From a virus: a DNA stretch of 64,000 nt. Below, in pieces: positions 3,850-64,000 of the stretch. The notes below the pieces were generated by a model. That model saw nothing but the letters and a program-made list of their open reading frames with translations. It was not told the origin of the DNA and searched no databases. Both the position numbers and the translations under genes were made by a program. How positions within the stretch are numbered: the stretch's first letter is position 1; every line of letters begins with the position of its first letter. The stretch is from the IMG/VR virus record IMGVR_UViG_3300035181_001974; one strand, 5' to 3'.

Positions 3850-4446
3850 ATGCTAAAGAAATCGATTCTCACCGTTGCAGTCGTGTTCTCGTTCGTTGCG
3901 TGCCAGTCATCGACACTGCCGTCCAGCGATTACGAGACTGGAGTGACTTCTTCCGCGTCTGCATCTACTTCCGCTTCTGGCGCCGGTGCAGACGTCGAGG
4001 CCTCTGTGGACGCAGGGGTCGACTCATCGGTCGAGGTCTCAGTGGCAACGCCGTGTCTTACCTCAGATGGGAAGCGGCGGTTGCCCGATCCTGCGTTGAC
4101 GCCGGGCAAGCTGTGCACTAAGGACGATCCTGACTTTAAGGAGCTGCGCTACCCGGGCAAGATCGCCTACTGTCAGCGCCACATCACCAAGAAGATGAAG
4201 GACACCGTCGCCAAGGCCTACGGCATCGCAGAGGCCGACTACTCGAAGTACGAGTTCGACCATTACATCCCGTTGGCCGCCGGCGGCGCCAACGACGTCA
4301 CCAACCTGTGGCCCCAGCCACTCTCGGATGCCAACAAGAAGGATGTGGTGGAGGACAAAGTCTACACGGGCCTGAAGTCGGGTGCGATTTCACAGGCTGA
4401 CGCAGTCACCGCGATCCGCGCGTGGAAGCCCGCCGATTGCCAGTGA
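3850..4446 (+). CDS. secreted/lipoprotein His-Me-finger (HNH, DUF1524-like) nuclease
   Basis: N-terminal signal with lipobox-like FVAC; Ser/Ala/Thr-rich linker; C-terminal EFDHYIPLAAGGANDVTNLWPQP motif. Confidence 0.5.
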   Translation: MLKKSILTVAVVFSFVACQSSTLPSSDYETGVTSSASASTSASGAGADVEASVDAGVDSSVEVSVATPCLTSDGKRRLPDPALTPGKLCTKDDPDFKELRYPGKIAYCQRHITKKMKDTVAKAYGIAEADYSKYEFDHYIPLAAGGANDVTNLWPQPLSDANKKDVVEDKVYTGLKSGAISQADAVTAIRAWKPADCQ

Positions 4447-5375: not shown

Positions 5376-5600
5376 ATGGCGAAGACGATCGCTGAGGTCC
5401 GTGGAACCGTCGGCAAACCTGGACCTAAGCAGCCTCTCAATGACGAGGCACAGGCGGCGATGCTCGAGGCCTTGGGCCTGGCAGACAAGTTGGCGACCTC
5501 CGTGGTTCGTGGTGACTCGCAGGGGCAGATGGCCCGGGCCTTGGCCTTCGTCCGTGCCCTGTCAGATCTCAGTCGAACGTACCGTATCAAGGTGCCCTGA
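5376..5600 (+). CDS. hypothetical protein
   Basis: 74-aa ORF with AAAGGA RBS; ATGA overlap with next ORF. Confidence 0.4.
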   Translation: MAKTIAEVRGTVGKPGPKQPLNDEAQAAMLEALGLADKLATSVVRGDSQGQMARALAFVRALSDLSRTYRIKVP

Positions 5601-5989
5601 TGCAGGCTGGGACCTTCAAGGCTCTGAGCAACGTGCGGCTCATGATCTGGCCCGCCTCGTGGGCCAATCAGTACCGCGACAACTACGAGGCCGCGCTCGC
5701 CAAGCAGCCTCAACCACACACAGTCCAGCTGCCTCTCGACATCACCATCAAGGAAGGACAGGAGTTTACGGTGGAGTTTGGCGCCGAGCGTCGCAAGCTG
5801 CTCGAGGTCATTCGCATCACCAAGAACCAAGAGCATCACGAGGACGAGCGCGACATCAACGTCGTCGACGTGATTGTCAAGGTGGGCTCCAAGACGCACA
5901 CCGGCATCTGCATCGTCTATGACGAGTGTCTACCCGTGATCGTCCAAGATGCCAACGCAATTAGGCCTGTTAAGAAACGCGCGAAGTAG
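5600..5989 (+). CDS. hypothetical protein (ends at TAG)
   Basis: 129-aa ORF, translationally coupled to the upstream ORF; stop codon TAG. Confidence 0.45.
   Translation: MQAGTFKALSNVRLMIWPASWANQYRDNYEAALAKQPQPHTVQLPLDITIKEGQEFTVEFGAERRKLLEVIRITKNQEHHEDERDINVVDVIVKVGSKTHTGICIVYDECLPVIVQDANAIRPVKKRAK

Positions 5990-6452: not shown

Positions 6453-6453
<1 letters not shown>
6067..6453 (+). CDS. hypothetical protein upstream of the sigma factor
   Basis: GTG start preceded by GGAGGT; ATGA overlap with sigma gene. Confidence 0.45.
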
Positions 6454-7256
<803 letters not shown>

Positions 7257-10515: not shown

Positions 10516-11874
10516 ATGAGCGATACCGTCATCGACATCCTGGAGAGTCTCGAGACCACCGCGGGTTCAAACGCGAAGCGCGACATCCTCAAGCGCAACT
10601 GCGACAACGAGCTGCTCCGCCGCGTCTTCGCAGCGGCCCAGGACCCGTACATGGTTTACTACGTCAACAAGTTCAAGATGCCTCAGGCACAGGCGAGTGC
10701 CCCCGTGGGCGACGACAAGACGCTGACGGCGTTTCTCGACGTCCTCCTTCCCGACCTATCGTCGCGGAAGTTGACGGGTAACGAGGCCAAGTTCACGGTC
10801 TCAGCGGCGTTTCAGCTGATGGACGCTCGCCAGCAGAAGTGGTGCCTTCGAATCCTCTTGAAGAACCTGCGCTGCGGCGTCCAGGAGTCGACGGTCAACA
10901 AGATCTGGCCTGGCACCATCAAGAGCTTCGCCGTTGCCCTGGCGTCTTCGGTGAAGAGCACCTTCGTCAAAGGCGAGGGCATCAAGATCCTCGAGAAGAT
11001 CGCATATCCCGTACGCGTGGAGCCCAAGCTTGACGGTCTGCGTTGCATCGCGGTGAAGAAGGACGGCAGGGTCACGTTCTTCACCCGCAATGGCACCGAG
11101 CTCGAGACCCTGCCGCGAATCAAGGCCGCGTTGGAAGCCGCAGAATACGACAACGTCGTCCTCGACGGCGAGGCGATGGGCGAGGACTGGAACGAGTCCA
11201 GTAGTGTCCTGATGTCGTCCAAGAACAAGAAGGACGACAGCAACATATTCTACAACGTCTTCGACGCGATGGCAGTCGACGATTGGATCGACCAAGAGAC
11301 GACGGTCATCTATTCAGACCGCTGCGAGCTGGTCGCCACCGTGGTCGAAATGGTCAACACCGGCTGTGTGCGCCAGGTGCCCCACATCATGGCCAAGGAC
11401 GAGGCTGAGCTCAAGGCCTTCTTCGCCAAGTGCATGAATGAGGGGTACGAGGGTGTCATGCTGAAGACGCTCGATTCCACCTACGAGTGGGACCGCTCGC
11501 GGAACATCCTGAAGCTGAAGCCCGTGACGACCTTCGAGGGCGTCGTAGTGGGCTGGTACGAGGGTCGCCGCGGTACCAAACGCGAGGGACTTTTCGGTGG
11601 CTTCAACGTGGTGCTGCCCAACGGCGTGGTCACTCGCGTGGGCGGGGGCTTCTCTGACAAGCTGCGTGCCGAGATCATGCTTGAGATGGCTGACTCTTGG
11701 TTGGGCAAGATCGTTGAGGTAGAAGGCCAACCTGACCCACTGACGAAGGACGGGCTCACTGTCGACGGCAAGGTTCGCTTTCCAGTCTACATTCGCGTTC
11801 GGTCGCCCGGCGACGTGGATCCTAAGGTGATAGCCGCGGGCGAGGCGTACCTCGCCAAGGAGATGGCCCAGTGA
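10516..11874 (+). CDS. ATP-dependent DNA ligase
   Basis: motif I KLDGLRCIAV, motif IV EGVMLK, motif V LKLKP; 452 aa. Confidence 0.8.
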   Translation: MSDTVIDILESLETTAGSNAKRDILKRNCDNELLRRVFAAAQDPYMVYYVNKFKMPQAQASAPVGDDKTLTAFLDVLLPDLSSRKLTGNEAKFTVSAAFQLMDARQQKWCLRILLKNLRCGVQESTVNKIWPGTIKSFAVALASSVKSTFVKGEGIKILEKIAYPVRVEPKLDGLRCIAVKKDGRVTFFTRNGTELETLPRIKAALEAAEYDNVVLDGEAMGEDWNESSSVLMSSKNKKDDSNIFYNVFDAMAVDDWIDQETTVIYSDRCELVATVVEMVNTGCVRQVPHIMAKDEAELKAFFAKCMNEGYEGVMLKTLDSTYEWDRSRNILKLKPVTTFEGVVVGWYEGRRGTKREGLFGGFNVVLPNGVVTRVGGGFSDKLRAEIMLEMADSWLGKIVEVEGQPDPLTKDGLTVDGKVRFPVYIRVRSPGDVDPKVIAAGEAYLAKEMAQ

Positions 11875-24061: not shown

Positions 24062-24156
24062 GGACCCGTGGTGTAACGGGCATACACGGTGTTGCTGTTC
24101 CTCCATGTCAGGAGGTTACGGGCACCCGACAGGGCGGTTCGATCCCGCCGGGTCCA
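24062..24156 (+). tRNA. long (about 95 nt) class II-like tRNA, anticodon unresolved
   Basis: perfect acceptor GGACCCG/CGGGTCC, D GTGT/ACAC, variable-arm hairpin CGGGCACCCG, T-arm GGCGGTTCGATCCCGCC; 11 extra nt before a CCTCC/GGAGG stem with 6-nt loop ATGTCA. Confidence 0.35.
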
Positions 24157-24161
24157 CTAAT

Positions 24162-28481: not shown

Positions 28482-29151
28482 ATGGAAACTGTCATCATCG
28501 AGATCAGGGCCGCCGAGGGCGGCGAGGACGCAAGACTTCTCGTTCAGGAGCAGCTCCGGGCATACGCCAACGCGGCGGCCCGGAGGGGTCTTTGAGGCGA
28601 CTGTAATCGATGATCGACCAGGGATGGTGATGCTCTCTGTCTCCGGCCCAGGAACCCTGCAGACCTTTGCAAATGAAGGCGGCGGGCACAGGTGGCAGCG
28701 CGTTCCACCGACAGAAAAGCGTGGTCGTGTGCAAACGTCGACAGTGACGGTCGCGGTCTTAAACCCAGACACCGTCATCGGCCAGGCACTAGACCCCCGT
28801 GATGTGGAAATCACCACTGCCCGAGGCTCGGGTCCGGGCGGCCAAAATCGCAACAAGACAGAGTCGTGCGTCATCGCGGTCCACAAGCCCACCGGCTTTC
28901 AGGTTCGCATTGACAACGAGCGCTCGCAGCACCAGAACCGGGCGATGGCCTTCAAGGTCTTGGCCGCTCGCCTCTACGAGGCTGAGTCTGAACGGCTCTA
29001 CCGCGAGCGCTCCAACGAGCGCAAGCAACAGGTGGGCTCAGGTCAGCGCGGCGACAAGGTACGAACCTACCGGACACAGGACGACCTGGTCACTGACCAT
29101 AGGACAGGTCAGAAGTACAACCTGTCGAAGTGGCTCAAGGGTGACTGGTGA
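28482..29151 (+). CDS. prfB: peptide chain release factor 2 (prfB) with +1 programmed ribosomal frameshift; coding as join(28482..28592,28594..29151)
   Basis: N-terminal METVIIEIRAAEGGEDARL (PCRF) ending at in-frame TGA inside GGAGGGG-T-CTT-TGA-G (SD-like + CUU UGA shift site); +1 frame continues FEATVIDDR..., universal GGQ motif in RGSGPGGQNRNKTESC, RSQHQNR. Confidence 0.85.
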
Positions 29152-34224: not shown

Positions 34225-34368
34225 CCAGCAAGTAATCACCACCAAGGCCGTCCCCAATGGCCTACATGTGAAAGCTTTTGTGATCGTGGCGTAGTGGTAT
34301 CGTACCACCGACGATCTAGGGCTATCGATGACATCGATGGCGACGAATGTTTTTCTGTGAAGAAAGTC

Positions 34369-34986
34369 ATGAAATCATATCCCTCAATCCCCTACGCCAC
34401 CGAGTGCCGAGTCCCAATCGTCGCCTTCGACAAGCTCGACGGGTCCAACGTCCGCGCCGAGTGGTCGCGCAAAAAAGGCTTCTACAAGTTCGGCACCCGC
34501 ACGCGGCTAGTGGACGCATCCGATCCTGTCTTCGGTAAGGTGCCCGGACTGATCAACGACAAGTACGGCAAGGGCATCGACGAGGTGCTCAAGGAATCGA
34601 AGTGGGTCTCGGCCTGCTGCTTCTTCGAATTTTGGGGGCCCAATAGTGCCTTCGGCATGCACGACCTCAAGGAAGACCAGACGGTAACCCTGATCGACGT
34701 GGCGCCCTTCGGCGCCGGCATTCTGGAGCCTGAGCTCTACCTGAAGTTGTTTGGTCACCTCGACCACGCCAAGGTCTTGTACGAAGGCGAAGTGACGGAA
34801 GCCTTCATAGAGAGCGTTCGGGACGGTTCGCTGCCCGGCATGACCTTTGAAGGCGTCGTCTGCAAAGGCAAGAACGACAAGAAAACCAAGGCACCCGTGA
34901 TGTTCAAGCAGAAGTCGCGGGCCTGGTTCGACAAGCTGAAGGCTTACTGCGGCGACAATAACGAGTTGTTCCGGACTCTACGGTAA
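34369..34986 (+). CDS. small nucleotidyltransferase-superfamily RNA ligase-like protein (KxDG)
   Basis: motif I FDKLDGSNVRAEW, downstream EFWGPNS and EGVVCKGKNDKK (motif IV/V-like); true start likely ATG 34369 (MKSYPSIPY). Confidence 0.55.
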   Translation: MKSYPSIPYATECRVPIVAFDKLDGSNVRAEWSRKKGFYKFGTRTRLVDASDPVFGKVPGLINDKYGKGIDEVLKESKWVSACCFFEFWGPNSAFGMHDLKEDQTVTLIDVAPFGAGILEPELYLKLFGHLDHAKVLYEGEVTEAFIESVRDGSLPGMTFEGVVCKGKNDKKTKAPVMFKQKSRAWFDKLKAYCGDNNELFRTLR

Positions 34987-36937: not shown

Positions 36938-38209
36938 ATGAAGCCGTTGGTGTTGGAGTACCTGCGTTCCCATACGTTCCGTGAGCTCGAGGACGAGCAC
37001 GGTGTCTGTGCGCGGCCCAACTCGCGCTTCGATAAGTTCTCACTCAACTATGATCAGATCTTGGCGAAGTCGGGCAATGCCTTGATGGAACAGTGCCGCG
37101 GCATGGTGATTCGTCCATCTCGCGAGCAGACGGAGCAGTTCCTCCACGATGAGGCCCGGCGTGGTGGCGCGCCTCTGTCGACAGCAAAGTGGCGCGACCG
37201 CGTCGTAGGCGACTGCGAGCTGTTGGCCTGGCCCATGAATCGCTTCTACAACCACGGCGATGTCGCGGCCGCGGGGGTCGACTGGTCGGATCCCGAGCTC
37301 CGCGTCTACGAGAAGCTCGATGGCACGTGTTGCATCGTCTACTGGGACGAACTTCATGGTCAGTGGCACGTCGGTACGCGGTCGGTTCCCGAGGCTGACC
37401 TGCCGATCCGCAAGGATGACATGTCGATCGGCAACATGACGTTCCGCGACCTGTTCTTCAAGGCCCTGATCGAGACCCGTGAGGCGAACTCGGGCCAAAA
37501 GCTAGACTGGGTTCCGAGCGACTTCGATCAGGTCGTTCATCTCAACAAGGAACTGACGTACGTCTTCGAGCTAACGAGCCCGCACAACCGCATCGTGGTT
37601 CGCTATGACGAGCCTCGTGTGACGCTGTTGGCGATTCGTCACACGGCATCGGGCAATGAATCGGTCATCGAGGAGCTGCAACTGCAGCACGTCAACCGGC
37701 CGCAGCGTTGGAAGTTGTCGGAACCGAAGGCGCTGGCAGCGTTTGTTGAGGCGGCGGACCCATCAAAGTTGGAAGGCGCGGTCGTCGTTGACTCGAATTT
37801 CAACCGTCAGAAGGTCAAGTCTCGGGCCTGGGTCCTGTCTTCCAAAGCGAAGGACCTAGTGACTGTCTCGAAGCGATCCGCAGTCGAGGCCATCATCCGC
37901 GGCACGATTGATGACGTCATCCCGTTGGTCGAGGCCGACGTGGCTGGGGAGCTGCGTTCGATGCAGGCTGCGGTGCGCGAGTATCTCATCTCTGTCGATC
38001 GCAACTTCGAGGCCTGGCGTGATTACGCAGCGGGTTCGCGGAAGCTCTTCGCTGAGAAGGTGATGCAGTCCAACGATTGGGCGGCGCCCTACTTCAACTT
38101 GTGGGAAAGCCGTGCGGCCAATGCCCGCGAGTGGTGTGAGTTGATGGCGTCCAAGGAAAAGCTCAACGCCTCGTCCTACGACACCATCCTGAATAAGATC
38201 GGCCGCTGA
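36938..38209 (+). CDS. ATP-dependent RNA ligase (Rnl-type)
   Basis: motif I YEKLDGTCCIVYWD, 423 aa, further nucleotidyltransferase motifs (FELTSPHNRIV, EGAVVVD); RBS TAGGAGG. Confidence 0.7.
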   Translation: MKPLVLEYLRSHTFRELEDEHGVCARPNSRFDKFSLNYDQILAKSGNALMEQCRGMVIRPSREQTEQFLHDEARRGGAPLSTAKWRDRVVGDCELLAWPMNRFYNHGDVAAAGVDWSDPELRVYEKLDGTCCIVYWDELHGQWHVGTRSVPEADLPIRKDDMSIGNMTFRDLFFKALIETREANSGQKLDWVPSDFDQVVHLNKELTYVFELTSPHNRIVVRYDEPRVTLLAIRHTASGNESVIEELQLQHVNRPQRWKLSEPKALAAFVEAADPSKLEGAVVVDSNFNRQKVKSRAWVLSSKAKDLVTVSKRSAVEAIIRGTIDDVIPLVEADVAGELRSMQAAVREYLISVDRNFEAWRDYAAGSRKLFAEKVMQSNDWAAPYFNLWESRAANAREWCELMASKEKLNASSYDTILNKIGR

Positions 38210-55050: not shown

Positions 55051-55863
55051 TCAGAACAGGCGAAACTTAGCGTCGCCCTTCAACTTGCGATAGTGCTTCT
55101 TGACCATCTGCATCGTCGTTGTCAACTGCTTAGGACTCAGGCCCGACAGTTCACGCATGTAGAGCAGGATGGCACTCTTGCTCAACAAGTCAACATCATC
55201 AACGTTTTCGAAGATGGTGATGATGGAGTTGATGCACGCCAGCTCATTCTCTGTCTTGACGCGGGTCCTGATTTCGTACAACATCTTCAGGACGCCAGCT
55301 GCGCTGGTCTCATTCTCCATGATCATCTCAGCAGACGGGACCATGTTGTGCTCTTCGACGATGTTGAACTCATGAGCATTCAGCGAGTTGGGATCGTCCA
55401 GCGACACCGAACGCTTGACGCGCTGTGCCTTCTGCTTTGTCCTGATGATCAACCAGTTCTTGGCGACCACGTTGAAGTACGAAAAAGCGTTGGTCCCTCG
55501 CGTGCCGTCGAACTTGTGAATCGTCTCAAAGAGGAAGTTGACGCAGTCGTTCTTCAAATCATCGTAGGTGTCGTGCAGGCTGGTGAACTTGTGAATGTTG
55601 ATCAGGTTCTCTGTCAACTTCTCAAACGCTGGCATGATTTCATTGACGTAGAGCCTCTCGCGTTCCTTCCTGTCAGTTTCCTTCTGGTAGGCGCAGATCG
55701 CGGCCTGCGTATTTTGATTGAAGTACATCCTCGACTGCTTCGCAGCCTTCTTCTGTTCCTCCGTCTTGGGCTCTTCCTTCTCAGGGGGAGAAGATGGGAC
55801 GATTGCGGCGAGTGCTGCCTTCTTTGCGGGTGATTTCTGGGTCGTCTTTTTGCGGGCGGCCAT
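55051..55863 (-). CDS. gp55-like late-transcription sigma factor
   Basis: segment DCVNFLFETIHKFDGTRGTNAFSYFNVVAKNWLIIRTKQKAQR parallels T4 gp55 [39 protein letters not shown]; basic N-terminal extension. Confidence 0.55.
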   Translation of the reverse strand: MAARKKTTQKSPAKKAALAAIVPSSPPEKEEPKTEEQKKAAKQSRMYFNQNTQAAICAYQKETDRKERERLYVNEIMPAFEKLTENLINIHKFTSLHDTYDDLKNDCVNFLFETIHKFDGTRGTNAFSYFNVVAKNWLIIRTKQKAQRVKRSVSLDDPNSLNAHEFNIVEEHNMVPSAEMIMENETSAAGVLKMLYEIRTRVKTENELACINSIITIFENVDDVDLLSKSAILLYMRELSGLSPKQLTTTMQMVKKHYRKLKGDAKFRLF

Positions 55864-60417: not shown

Positions 60418-60898
60418 TCCAACAATGTATCAACGTTTCTGCGCGAAGTTCATCGAGCCACCAACCCAGTGAATGAAGTACTCCTGCTCTGTCTCGTGAT
60501 ACATCGGTCCACAGGGCACCATGCGCCATGTACCGCCATAGCGATGATACTCATGACACAGATGATAACGTTGAAGCGGTTCTTCTGGCTCATCGCGCCG
60601 GAGTCGAAACTATTCAGCGAGCCTCTCTAGACCAGAGTTGTTGTAGAAGGCTGGATCACTCACGGAGCTCAAGCATTTGCTCGAGGCTACAACGCTTGCC
60701 GCAGTGATCACAGATAAAGGCAGTTTCCATGACGCTCCCGAAGGGACTTGAACCCTCAACGCATGGTGTTAGAATCCGTCACTCTGCCATTGAGTTACAG
60801 GAGCAGTGCCCCGAGTGGGAGTCGAACCCACGATCGCGGTTTTAGAGACCGCAGCTTTAGCCCGCTAAGCTACCGAGGCAAACCTCAAAATTGTACGG

Positions 60899-61507
60899 TC
60901 AGTAGCAGCACTTGTTTCTCCGTCTCGGCTCGGACCAGGTCACGCAGCGTCTGGGGGTGATTGAGATAGGTGCGGGCGTCAGAGTCATCATGACGTCGAA
61001 CAACGGAAAGTACTTCTCGCGGGTCTCTGCGACCTGCTTGACACGGAACTCCTTAGAGGCTGCCCCCAACGTCCTGAGATTGTCGAGCCGATCACGTGCC
61101 TTGATGAACGGACGCCAGTCGGTCGACATGTTGAAGCACTCAAAATAACCTTCCTCGGGCACCTTGTTCAAAGTCTTGATGATCTCGATGACATCGGTGC
61201 CGAAGCAGCGCTCGATCAACACGGGCGGCAGGTTGGGAGCGTCTTCCGCCACGTCATGGAGCAACGCAGAGATTATCATCTCTGACTTGACGATCTTGGC
61301 CTTGTCGATCAGGACGATGGCCACTTGGCGCACGTGCTCGAAGTACCTGACGGGATCACCGTGGTCGTCCAATTCCTTTCGAACCTACGCGCGGTTGCCA
61401 TACTTTGCCATCGTGTAGGCATGCTGCACGTTGAGGATGACGCTCGGGGCTAGGAACGAATCCAAATGCCTGAAGAAACTTTCGCGATTTCCGTTGCCAT
61501 GATTCAT
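60899..61507 (-). CDS. RelA/SpoT-type HD hydrolase (small alarmone hydrolase-like) interrupted by an in-frame TAG at 61385-61387
   Basis: HD motif ISALLHDVAEDAP and upstream YFEHVRQVAIVL; ATG 61505-61507 ORF hits TAG between ..AKYGNRA and VRKELDDHG.., aligning with the conserved Gln of the H.GQ.RK motif. Confidence 0.5.
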
Positions 61508-61548
61508 GGCAAGCAAAACGGGCGGTGAATTTCACCGCCCGCCCTTGC

Positions 61549-62879: not shown

Positions 62880-63359
62880 CTACTTGAGGTTGTCGTGGAC
62901 CCAAGCCACAAATGTCTTGTTCGACAAGGCATACTGACGGCGCCGTTTGATCGTCTCGACGCAGACGTGGCCATTCCAACCTGTCAACTCATGAAGGGCC
63001 ATCGCGGTCACAATCCCGCTGCGATTGTACCCTGACATGCATGTGACTAGGACCTTCTTGCCTGACCTGACGTGGCTGGCTACCTCTCGGGCGGCCGCCT
63101 GCCATGTCGGCAAGAAGTTCATAAGTCGATGTGGACGTTCATCGTCATCGCCCGGTGCGAGGATGACATGAAGACCCGGGTACCATGAGGCGTCCTGGTG
63201 ATCACTTGCTGCGAGCACCACGACATCAAAACCCTTATCACGCAGCAGGCTGCCTGCCGGCGGAATGGCACCCTGCCAAAGGGTACCGTGGATGTTGTTG
63301 ATGTCCAATACGTTCATGATGTCATCGTAATCCGGATCGTCGTCCATGTCAACCCTCAC
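62880..63359 (-). CDS. dual-specificity / tyrosine-type protein phosphatase (CX5R)
   Basis: VLVTCMSGYNRSGIVTAMA active-site loop; ATGA overlap with NAMPT gene. Confidence 0.65.
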   Translation of the reverse strand: MRVDMDDDPDYDDIMNVLDINNIHGTLWQGAIPPAGSLLRDKGFDVVVLAASDHQDASWYPGLHVILAPGDDDERPHRLMNFLPTWQAAAREVASHVRSGKKVLVTCMSGYNRSGIVTAMALHELTGWNGHVCVETIKRRRQYALSNKTFVAWVHDNLK

Positions 63360-64000
63360 AGGGCTGCGCGGGCTCGCACCTCATCGAGGGTGTATTCTTT
63401 CAGGACCTCACCGTCCAGGAACACCGTCTCCATGATTGAGTACGGCAGCTTCTCTTTGCCAACTGGGACTCGGCCCGTGGTGAATCGCCCCTCAAAGACC
63501 TCGAGGTCCAGACGCCCCTTCTTCGAGCGCTTGCCCGAGTCGGTCACTGGTTCCTTGAAGACGTCGATCTCAAGGCCGTCTGCCACAATATGACTACACT
63601 TCATGGCGAACTTCTGCGTATCGCGGTTGTGTTGCTGCAACAACGCGCCTCCCATGCCGAAGGCGATGTTGGTCGCCGAGAAGCCGGCCTTCACCGCCGC
63701 GTCCAGGATCGCATAGATGCTGTCACGGTTGATTCCGTCACCTTGGATGACGCGAACGTTGTTCAGGACCTTGTAGCCCTTCGAGTTGACAGTTGAACCG
63801 AACTTGGACTCCAAGAGTCGCAGACAGTTGAGCACCACGGTTGGCGGGTGACCCGAATCCGGACGTACCACCACGATGGCGCCCGAATCCTTGACCTCCT
63901 GACGCAGGGTCTCGCCCCAGATGTGCTCACAGGCATTGTAGATGTCGTACGAGTCGCTGACCACCGCGACCAGTGCTCCAGGCTTAGCGAAGTTCCGTAG
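63356..64000 (-). CDS. nicotinamide phosphoribosyltransferase (NAMPT), C-terminal part; gene continues beyond the window
   Basis: VRPDSG, VIQGDGI, FGMGGALLQ motifs typical of NAMPT. Confidence 0.8.
   Translation of the reverse strand, partial: LRNFAKPGALVAVVSDSYDIYNACEHIWGETLRQEVKDSGAIVVVRPDSGHPPTVVLNCLRLLESKFGSTVNSKGYKVLNNVRVIQGDGINRDSIYAILDAAVKAGFSATNIAFGMGGALLQQHNRDTQKFAMKCSHIVADGLEIDVFKEPVTDSGKRSKKGRLDLEVFEGRFTTGRVPVGKEKLPYSIMETVFLDGEVLKEYTLDEVRARAAL

Follow-up and report, generated by a model that had tools for sequence, protein, structure and literature searches.

The locus raises the question of whether an in-frame amber codon, lying on a glutamine that almost every homologue conserves, marks programmed recoding in an uncultivated huge phage or the early decay of a gene. 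The gene, a putative HD hydrolase, lies on the minus strand of the window, by which we mean the whole stretch of 64,000 nucleotides that was analysed. Its parts are as follows.

61388..61507, minus strand: HD hydrolase codons 1-40 (MNHGNGNRESFF...KYGNRA), with Asn38 where the homologues have His (116/116)
61385..61387, minus strand: in-frame TAG, codon 41, at the conserved Gln of H-R-x-Q-x-R-K, one C->T from the nearest relative's CAG
60977..61384, minus strand: HD hydrolase codons 42-177, with catalytic H84-D85, E88-D89, and D139..D142-N143 kept
60974..60976, minus strand: C-run (Pro178), the frameshift site, with one base fewer than in all relatives
60885..60973, minus strand: ancestral C-terminal coding sequence, now out of frame, which reads RTYLNHPQTLRDLVRAETEKQVLLLTVQF and ends at TGA 60887-60885

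The frame is opened by ATG 61507-61505, meets TAG 61387-61385 as codon 41, continues beyond it, and at present terminates at TGA 60901-60899, all on the minus strand. With the TAG read as an amino acid, the product matched Pfam HD_4 at 36.7 bits (cut-off 27.2), and the hydrolase matched the NCBIfam spoT_relA subfamily with an E-value of 6.5e-11. A search of 5.8 billion proteins found 634 homologues, most of them ~ 204–210 residues long and on contigs of up to 475 kb, and 116 of these were aligned for the column counts given here. The metal-binding and catalytic residues (H58, H84-D85, E88-D89, and D139/D142-N143) are all present in the window copy and are invariant in 115–116 of the 116. Judged by these matches, the gene is that of a small alarmone hydrolase with a Mesh1/SpoT-type HD domain. 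Like other small alarmone hydrolases it would encode a single-domain protein of ~ 205 residues, and candidate substrates of the phage family could be (p)ppGpp, (pp)pApp, or pyrophosphorylated tRNA.

The amber codon falls within the N-terminal motif of this domain. The hydrolase domains of Drosophila and human Mesh1 and of Rel/SpoT (PDB 3NQW, 3NR1/5VXA, 6S2T, and 6YVC) align with the window product in HD_4, in H-R-x-Q-x-R-K, and in the HD, ED, and DxxDN residues, with N-R-A-stop-V-R-K placed against H-R-Q-Q-R-R-K of Mesh1 and H-R-G-Q-L-R-R of Rel. In the window copy, by contrast, Asn replaces the His of the motif, a stop replaces its Gln, and the C-terminus is shifted. Of the 116 aligned homologues, 115 have Gln in the TAG column, and tblastn placed Q opposite the TAG in 31/31 single-stop alignments. 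At the DNA level the relatives' codon is CAG (13) or CAA (8), and all 34 relatives have one or the other. The nearest relative, L003, reads CAC CGC GCG CAG where the window reads AAC CGC GCG TAG, and by this comparison the TAG is a single C->T transition from CAG. The original prediction had given the same start codon and the same amber position, had set the TAG on the conserved Gln, and had called CAG to TAG a single transition; all of this holds, and the homologues do not lack Gln at this column.

An error of sequencing or assembly, with the true base giving CAG, is hardly credible. The TAG and the C-run are identical in five contigs from at least four samples and two assembly pipelines, among them two JGI and two Logan contigs (SRR11727985, SRR11727740) from other samples that match the window with 100% identity over the gene and the surrounding 9–13 kb. 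Assembly error as the source of the TAG was rejected on the strength of these identical, independent contigs. The recovered copies are clonal, with 0 SNPs among the five, and because they point to a clonal population, the age of the TAG is not one that strain variation can judge.

The gene callers of JGI and Logan predict a 157-aa product downstream of the TAG, on record on nine contigs, and the product records P0121 and P0001 differ solely in the translation of the TTG start. This annotation could mean that the functional product is the truncated 157-residue protein starting at TTG 61372 (the JGI call), with the TAG just closing a short upstream ORF. We consider that very improbable, given that such a protein would lack 44 N-terminal residues, among them the invariant R43-K44 of the substrate-binding motif conserved in Mesh1 and Rel, and that the 40 codons upstream share its frame and are clearly coding sequence with homology to the family. 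The AAGGA ahead of the TTG is just 1 nt from it, and the truncated architecture occurs in 0 of the 634 homologues.

Further lesions were found in the gene. A DNA alignment with four relatives shows a 1-nt gap in the window's C-run at 60976-60974, which shifts the final ~ 28 codons into another frame. Past Leu-Thr-Pro178, translation in the window frame gives APISITPRRCVTWSEPRRRNKCCY and has no match, and the alternative frame reads RTYLNHPQTLRDLVRAETEKQVLLL and fits the homologues' xEYxxRVQxLRDLVRxETERQxxLL. The same break is seen with tblastn, which divides the gene into two frames (residues 4–176 and 179–201). Three codons ahead of the TAG, the motif His38, a His in every aligned homologue, is Asn, and one residue is deleted in 'DWRPYVIKACDRLDN' of the window copy. 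The N-terminal H-R-x-Q-x-R-K motif is not intact (His to Asn, Gln to stop), and there is no uninterrupted frame of ~ 205 codons, with the TAG at codon 41 and the 1-nt deletion at codon 178. Compared with its intact orthologues, the gene has a premature stop together with a frameshift, H38N, and a 1-aa deletion, and a premature stop with at least one further disabling lesion is one mark of a pseudogene. The earlier description of the gene as intact except for one TAG was right about the TAG but missed the 1-nt deletion, H38N, and the missing residue. Likewise, the expectation that a TAG-to-Gln reading would restore a textbook HD domain agrees with the HD_4 score and the preserved catalytic residues but not with the Asn at position 38 or the shifted tail.

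These lesions are best described as recent. The window copy departs from the family at 13 of the 81 columns conserved in at least 90% of homologues, where the 116 homologues have a median of 2 and a maximum of 9 departures; homologues with comparably long terminal branches show 6–7, which makes the excess only about two-fold. In a neighbour-joining tree the window branch is the longest in the clade (0.167 vs. 0.06–0.15). A gene-specific acceleration was considered and rejected: the effect was gone after normalising to neighbouring genes, which ties the long branch to the genome as a whole and not to the HD gene. Gene-wide identity to relatives matches the prediction from the neighbouring glycosyltransferase and PD-(D/E)XK nuclease genes (z from -1.4 to +1.6), and since it is not below that expectation, we place the lesions late in the history of the gene. 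A frameshift search across the neighbourhood, with an E-value cut-off that excluded short tails, returned nothing.

The reading we prefer, and hold with moderate confidence, is recent inactivation: a decaying hydrolase gene with a leaky stop, not programmed recoding. Several observations speak against it. Phage genomes seldom retain dead genes, and in this one the catalytic HD, ED, and DxxDN residues are intact. The shifted tail falls in the least conserved, most variable region of the family and may be dispensable, overall divergence is not raised, the excess at conserved sites is only the two-fold one given above, and the copies recovered are all clonal. Suppression of TAG as Gln would also make precisely this kind of substitution neutral. 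Candidate suppressors lie directly beside the gene.

60807..60879, minus strand: t1, tRNA with anticodon CUA; canonical cloverleaf, 7-nt loop CU-CUA-AA, A73, no encoded CCA; Rfam 60.4 bits
60733..60804, minus strand: t2, tRNA with anticodon CUA; loop UU-CUA-AC, two non-standard anticodon-stem pairs, G73; Rfam 48.8 bits

ARAGORN listed 46 tRNA genes in the window, 44 of them in plus-strand arrays, with t1 and t2 the only ones on the minus strand; its own boundaries for these two are 60879-60806 and 60805-60731. The pair had been absent from the original prediction, which had advised looking for tRNAs with a CUA anticodon. The first of them, t1, begins 5–6 nt past the ancestral TGA 60887-60885 of the HD gene on the same strand, and this spacing makes co-transcription of the gene with the tRNAs likely. 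Both t1 and t2 have the features of an amber suppressor, namely a cloverleaf, a 7-nt anticodon loop, U33, CUA, and a purine at 37. Neither body resembles the phage's own tRNA-Gln genes, and similarity to its other 44 tRNAs indicated no clear parent. CUA suppressors tend to be glutaminylated (10.1101/2021.08.26.457843), so read-through would restore the ancestral Gln; that Gln is the residue inserted here is our guess by analogy with this tendency.

A pyrrolysine tRNA was rejected. The ARAGORN label 'Pyl' reflects the anticodon only, the general tRNA model aligns end to end, and the D-loop, the 5-bp anticodon stem, and the variable loop are ordinary; no pyl genes were seen among the scanned window proteins. 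An ARAGORN tRNA-UUA at 830-905 on the plus strand was also rejected as a suppressor, as it scores under the Rfam tRNA threshold and has an odd loop. This tRNA-like call lies inside a tRNA array and has an encoded CCA; its anticodon stem is 6 bp long, and the loop either has 5 nt or reads GAUUAUC. For window positions 1-34300, we noted no tRNA-Tyr among the 46 ARAGORN tRNAs, to which Rfam adds a few weak ones, and a 96-nt ARAGORN call with a 4-base anticodon 'gttc' at 24062-24157 has no Rfam support.

Downstream tRNA genes are shared with relatives. Thirteen of the 34 IMG/VR relatives, with the HD gene intact, have one or two of them, either within ~ 100 nt or at 0.5–1.1 kb, scoring 44–57 bits with Rfam. 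Positions on the relatives' contigs include the following.

L003: 6613-6771
L004: 6600-6673 and 7136-7212
L007: 6615-6767
L009: 6621-6693
L010: 7072-7224
L016: 7041-7194
L030: 6617-6769
L032: 6617-6767

In most of these tRNAs the anticodon loop is 8 nt long and reads A-CUUCAAR or A-UUUCAAC. The loop flanks are those of the window pair and the anticodon differs, with CU-UCA-AA and UU-UCA-AC in relatives against CU-CUA-AA and UU-CUA-AC in the window. This suggests opal-type (UCA) versions in relatives, amber-type (CUA) versions in the window, and switching of the anticodon between the two; for some of the relatives' loops, UUC or the quadruplet UUCA is an alternative reading. One relative, L009, has a CUA tRNA beside an HD gene whose CAG codon is intact, so the suppressor exists independently of the TAG. 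By this comparison of loci, the tRNA pair is a conserved module of the clade and not an adaptation to the HD TAG codon, with UCA in unusual 8-nt loops in the relatives and CUA in 7-nt loops in the window phage and L009. One could go further and suppose that the clade keeps an alarmone hydrolase gene and a nonsense-suppressor tRNA pair together as a module, and that the HD TAG is the first natural target of such suppressors, with full-length expression of the hydrolase gated by tRNAs processed from its own transcript. We rate this stronger claim as unlikely; if true, it would represent an incipient high-GC route to TAG-to-Gln recoding.

The tRNA pair also bears on a simpler alternative to decay, in which the gene is functional and dependent on suppression: the TAG is read by the two tRNA-CUA, probably as Gln, selection still acts on the gene, and its product tolerates the shifted tail and N38. 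We regard this as a possibility to be taken seriously, though doubtful. It accounts for two tRNA-CUA genes immediately downstream on the same strand, and for CUA in place of the relatives' UCA in both tRNA lineages with the flanks kept, which suggests selection on the anticodon. It also fits a TAG at a position that is Gln in nearly all homologues, the rarity of TAG as a terminator (at most 5/63), intact catalytic residues, and normal gene-wide divergence. A preprint further proposes that acquisition of a suppressor lets in-frame stops accumulate (10.1101/2021.08.26.457843). Against it, the frameshift and the loss of an invariant His are in this same gene and no other disabling lesion was detected in the window, where the window-wide scan covered in-frame stops and the frameshift search was blind to short tails. 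The TAG is also not conserved, with CAG or CAA in 34/34 relatives including the CUA-bearing L009.

The rest of the window was consistent with the standard code. No second TAG-interrupted gene was found among the ~ 60 genes of the window, and a single in-frame TAG in that many genes weighs against dependence on suppression. In a codon-usage scan, 168 TAGs in any frame had open flanks, and coding-like sequence on both sides was seen only at the HD TAG and at a TAG|ATG junction at 55866-55864. The latter is an ordinary junction, at which the TAG of a small membrane-protein gene is followed immediately and in frame by the ATG of the next gene. Efficient suppression would fuse these two proteins, a further point against a tRNA pair that routinely decodes TAG. 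At this junction we also noted a 108-bp in-frame segment, 55755-55862, that is present in the window, L002, L037, and L038 and absent from L001. The segment, located N-terminally in the 270-aa protein that starts immediately after the membrane-protein gene's TAG, is the only substantial difference among otherwise near-identical contigs.

Among 63 likely gene ends, TGA was used 45 times, TAA 13 times, and TAG 5 times. TAG terminates at least three credible genes: a DSP phosphatase gene (with TAA one codon on), the small membrane-protein gene, and ORF 5600-5989. Under the standard code the window is densely packed with long intact ORFs (400–1422 aa) and has no large unexplained gaps. The block at 38.5–55 kb includes a baseplate wedge homologue, which identifies it as the late structural cluster, and has no in-frame TAG interruption; the nine genes in the 7 kb past the window end have no TAG interruption either. 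ORF statistics under alternative codes were uninformative at the G+C of the window (genome G+C 53–59%). We rejected genome-wide TAG recoding (code 15), as there is one interrupted gene only, TAG is still used as a terminator, and the structural genes are clean. The phage does not use a recoded genetic code.

A homology scan for in-frame stops on the coding strand of the 34 relatives' syntenic loci found only the HD TAG and one TGA in L019 (IMGVR_UViG_3300043177_000122, 359 kb). That TGA, at 4004-4006, is in frame at a Trp conserved in 9/9 homologues (GxNWND), in a gene that its motifs mark as putatively Thg1-like (tRNA-His guanylyltransferase). It parallels the TAG at Gln, in a relative of lower GC, and no tRNA was found within the 12.5-kb L019 locus.

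The phage encodes a release factor of its own, which has the following features.

28483..29151, plus strand: phage release factor gene, without domain 1; RF1-like (PPT motif, GGQ)
28585-28597, plus strand: prfB-style +1 frameshift site AGGGGT CTT TGA G, within the release factor gene

The factor begins METVIIEIRAAEGG..., meets the TGA in GG AGG GGT CTT TGA G, and resumes in the +1 frame with ...GGHRWQRVPPTEKRGRVQTS... and then ...GSGPGGQNRNKTES.... The reconstructed 222-residue protein scores 213–219 bits on prfA (RF1) models and 135 on prfB (RF2), and its tripeptide, PPT, is of the RF1 PxT type and not SPF. The gene pairs an RF1-like reader head with an RF2-style, UGA-sensing autoregulation cassette. 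RF1-type factors read UAG, and a phage factor that is RF1-like by these scores would be expected to do the same. One option of the original prediction had been a regulatory stop, with read-through set by a phage RF2 that cannot recognise UAG. The prfB-type CUU UGA +1 frameshift site is in keeping with that idea, but the PPT tripeptide and the prfA scores are not, and an RF1-type factor would favour termination at codon 41. We consider a stop regulated in this way the least probable of all the explanations. The same factor would compete with the tRNA pair at UAG, which also lowers the standing of a functional, suppression-dependent gene.

The region ahead of the start codon holds one further feature.

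61515..61545, minus strand: G+C-rich hairpin followed by TTTT, terminator-like, 8 nt upstream of the HD start codon

The hairpin has the sequence GGGCGGTG-AAATT-CACCGCCC, with GTTTTGC after it, and is situated between the tRNA-binding-protein gene and the HD start codon. It resembles a terminator, and it was not among the sites listed by a consensus terminator scan. No Shine-Dalgarno sequence was visible ahead of the HD ATG. Relatives have an overlapping stop-start at the same junction and no such hairpin arrangement. A terminator-like hairpin without a Shine-Dalgarno sequence ahead of the start codon is a further argument against a gene still maintained through suppression.

We favour recent inactivation over maintained recoding because a nonsense codon, a frameshift, and the loss of an invariant motif residue coincide in one 207-codon gene, no relative has the TAG, and there is no second target among the ~ 60 genes. 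In this preferred reading, a CAG-to-TAG nonsense substitution would have become fixed in the small alarmone hydrolase gene of an uncultivated huge phage, and the gene would be in early decay, with an invariant His lost, a base lost near the 3' end, and an unusual number of conserved residues changed. The two amber-suppressor tRNA genes are probably co-transcribed with the HD gene and, if expressed and charged, t1 and t2 would make UAG leaky in infected cells. Some full-length protein would then probably still be made, perhaps with Gln at codon 41, and this leakiness would explain how the nonsense allele reached fixation. The lesions, the tRNA genes, the lack of other interrupted genes, and the RF1-like factor are observations; tRNA expression and charging, the level of read-through, and the loss of function are inferred. 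A very recent nonsense mutation was the best supported of the three options originally put forward, in view of the single C->T change, the frameshift and H38N in the same gene, and a divergence that is not raised. Read-through by a phage suppressor, another of the three, is physically plausible with two tRNA-CUA genes adjacent, but its programming is unsupported by the CAG and CAA codons of all 34 relatives, by L009, and by the lack of any other TAG-dependent gene.

Suppressor tRNAs encoded by phages and TAG-to-Gln recoding are both established. Phages that read TAG as Gln (code 15) include crAss-like, Lak, and Agate phages (10.1101/2021.08.26.457843; PMC9523058). The window phage shares with them a phage tRNA-CUA, an in-frame TAG at Gln, and the rarity of TAG as a terminator, and it fits their proposed intermediate, in which a suppressor is acquired and in-frame stops can then accumulate. 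In contrast to them, it has one in-frame TAG in ~ 60 genes and none in structural genes, a G+C of 53–59% where theirs is low, an RF1-like factor rather than RF2, and other degenerative lesions in the affected gene. Code 15 phages concentrate recoded codons in late and lysis genes and, in some clades, have RF2; neither is the case in the window phage.

Standard-code jumbo phages with tRNA-CUA are also known, XacN1 with two such genes and RsoM2USA with one (PMC5852040, PMC8504454). Like the window phage, both are jumbo phages that use the standard code and carry many tRNA genes, one or two tRNA-CUA genes among them. For XacN1, read-through of all 18 amber stops was carried out in silico and gave no target gene (PMC5852040), whereas in the window phage one gene with an internal TAG adjoins the tRNAs. 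Classical amber mutants grown on supE or supF hosts offer another parallel, as a CAG-to-TAG change there is rescued only with a CUA suppressor tRNA; here, the suppressor is phage-encoded and lies beside the mutated gene. Deposited phages have no detectable DNA similarity to the window, and the closest deposited phage record, LR745208.1, is an uncultured 485-kb phage with 46% protein identity. The locus fits the known picture, possibly as an early intermediate, and is not a new kind of system.

What the locus means depends on whether the hydrolase functions. If the gene is decaying, as we think more likely, a stop that replaces a conserved Gln next to a suppressor tRNA does not by itself establish recoding, and the other lesions of a gene and the rest of its genome should be checked before doing so. 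If the hydrolase is functional, it provides a concrete, testable target locus for jumbo-phage amber suppressors and a snapshot of a suppressor-first path to recoding, in a high-GC genome where this is unexpected. Were the gene indeed dependent on suppression, the TAG would be a first step of TAG-to-Gln recoding in a standard-code, high-GC huge phage and, for the orphan amber suppressors that such phages carry, the first target within the genome itself.

Finally, the neighbourhood of the HD gene is rich in translation, tRNA, and anti-defence functions, including PTH2, a tRNA-binding domain protein, NAMPT, an NMNAT-Nudix protein, and RNA ligases. An NAD salvage pair was observed at window positions 63356-64000 (minus strand) and at 5566-8017 of L037, consisting of NAMPT (462 aa) and a CTP_transf_like + NUDIX protein (NMNAT-like, 336 aa). 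The pair is located just upstream of the phosphatase, PTH2, tRNA-binding, HD, and tRNA block, and past it are sugar-nucleotide genes for a UDP-glucose dehydrogenase, a DegT aminotransferase, and an epimerase. Elsewhere in the window, on the plus strand, we noted an ATP-dependent DNA ligase, two proteins of the RNA-ligase family (one of T4 Rnl1 type), and a sigma-70 family factor (10516-11874, 34294-34986, 36938-38209, and 6453-7256). Taken with PTH2 and the release factor, the predicted functions of these ligases and of the sigma-70 factor suggest a toolkit for tRNA and translation repair.
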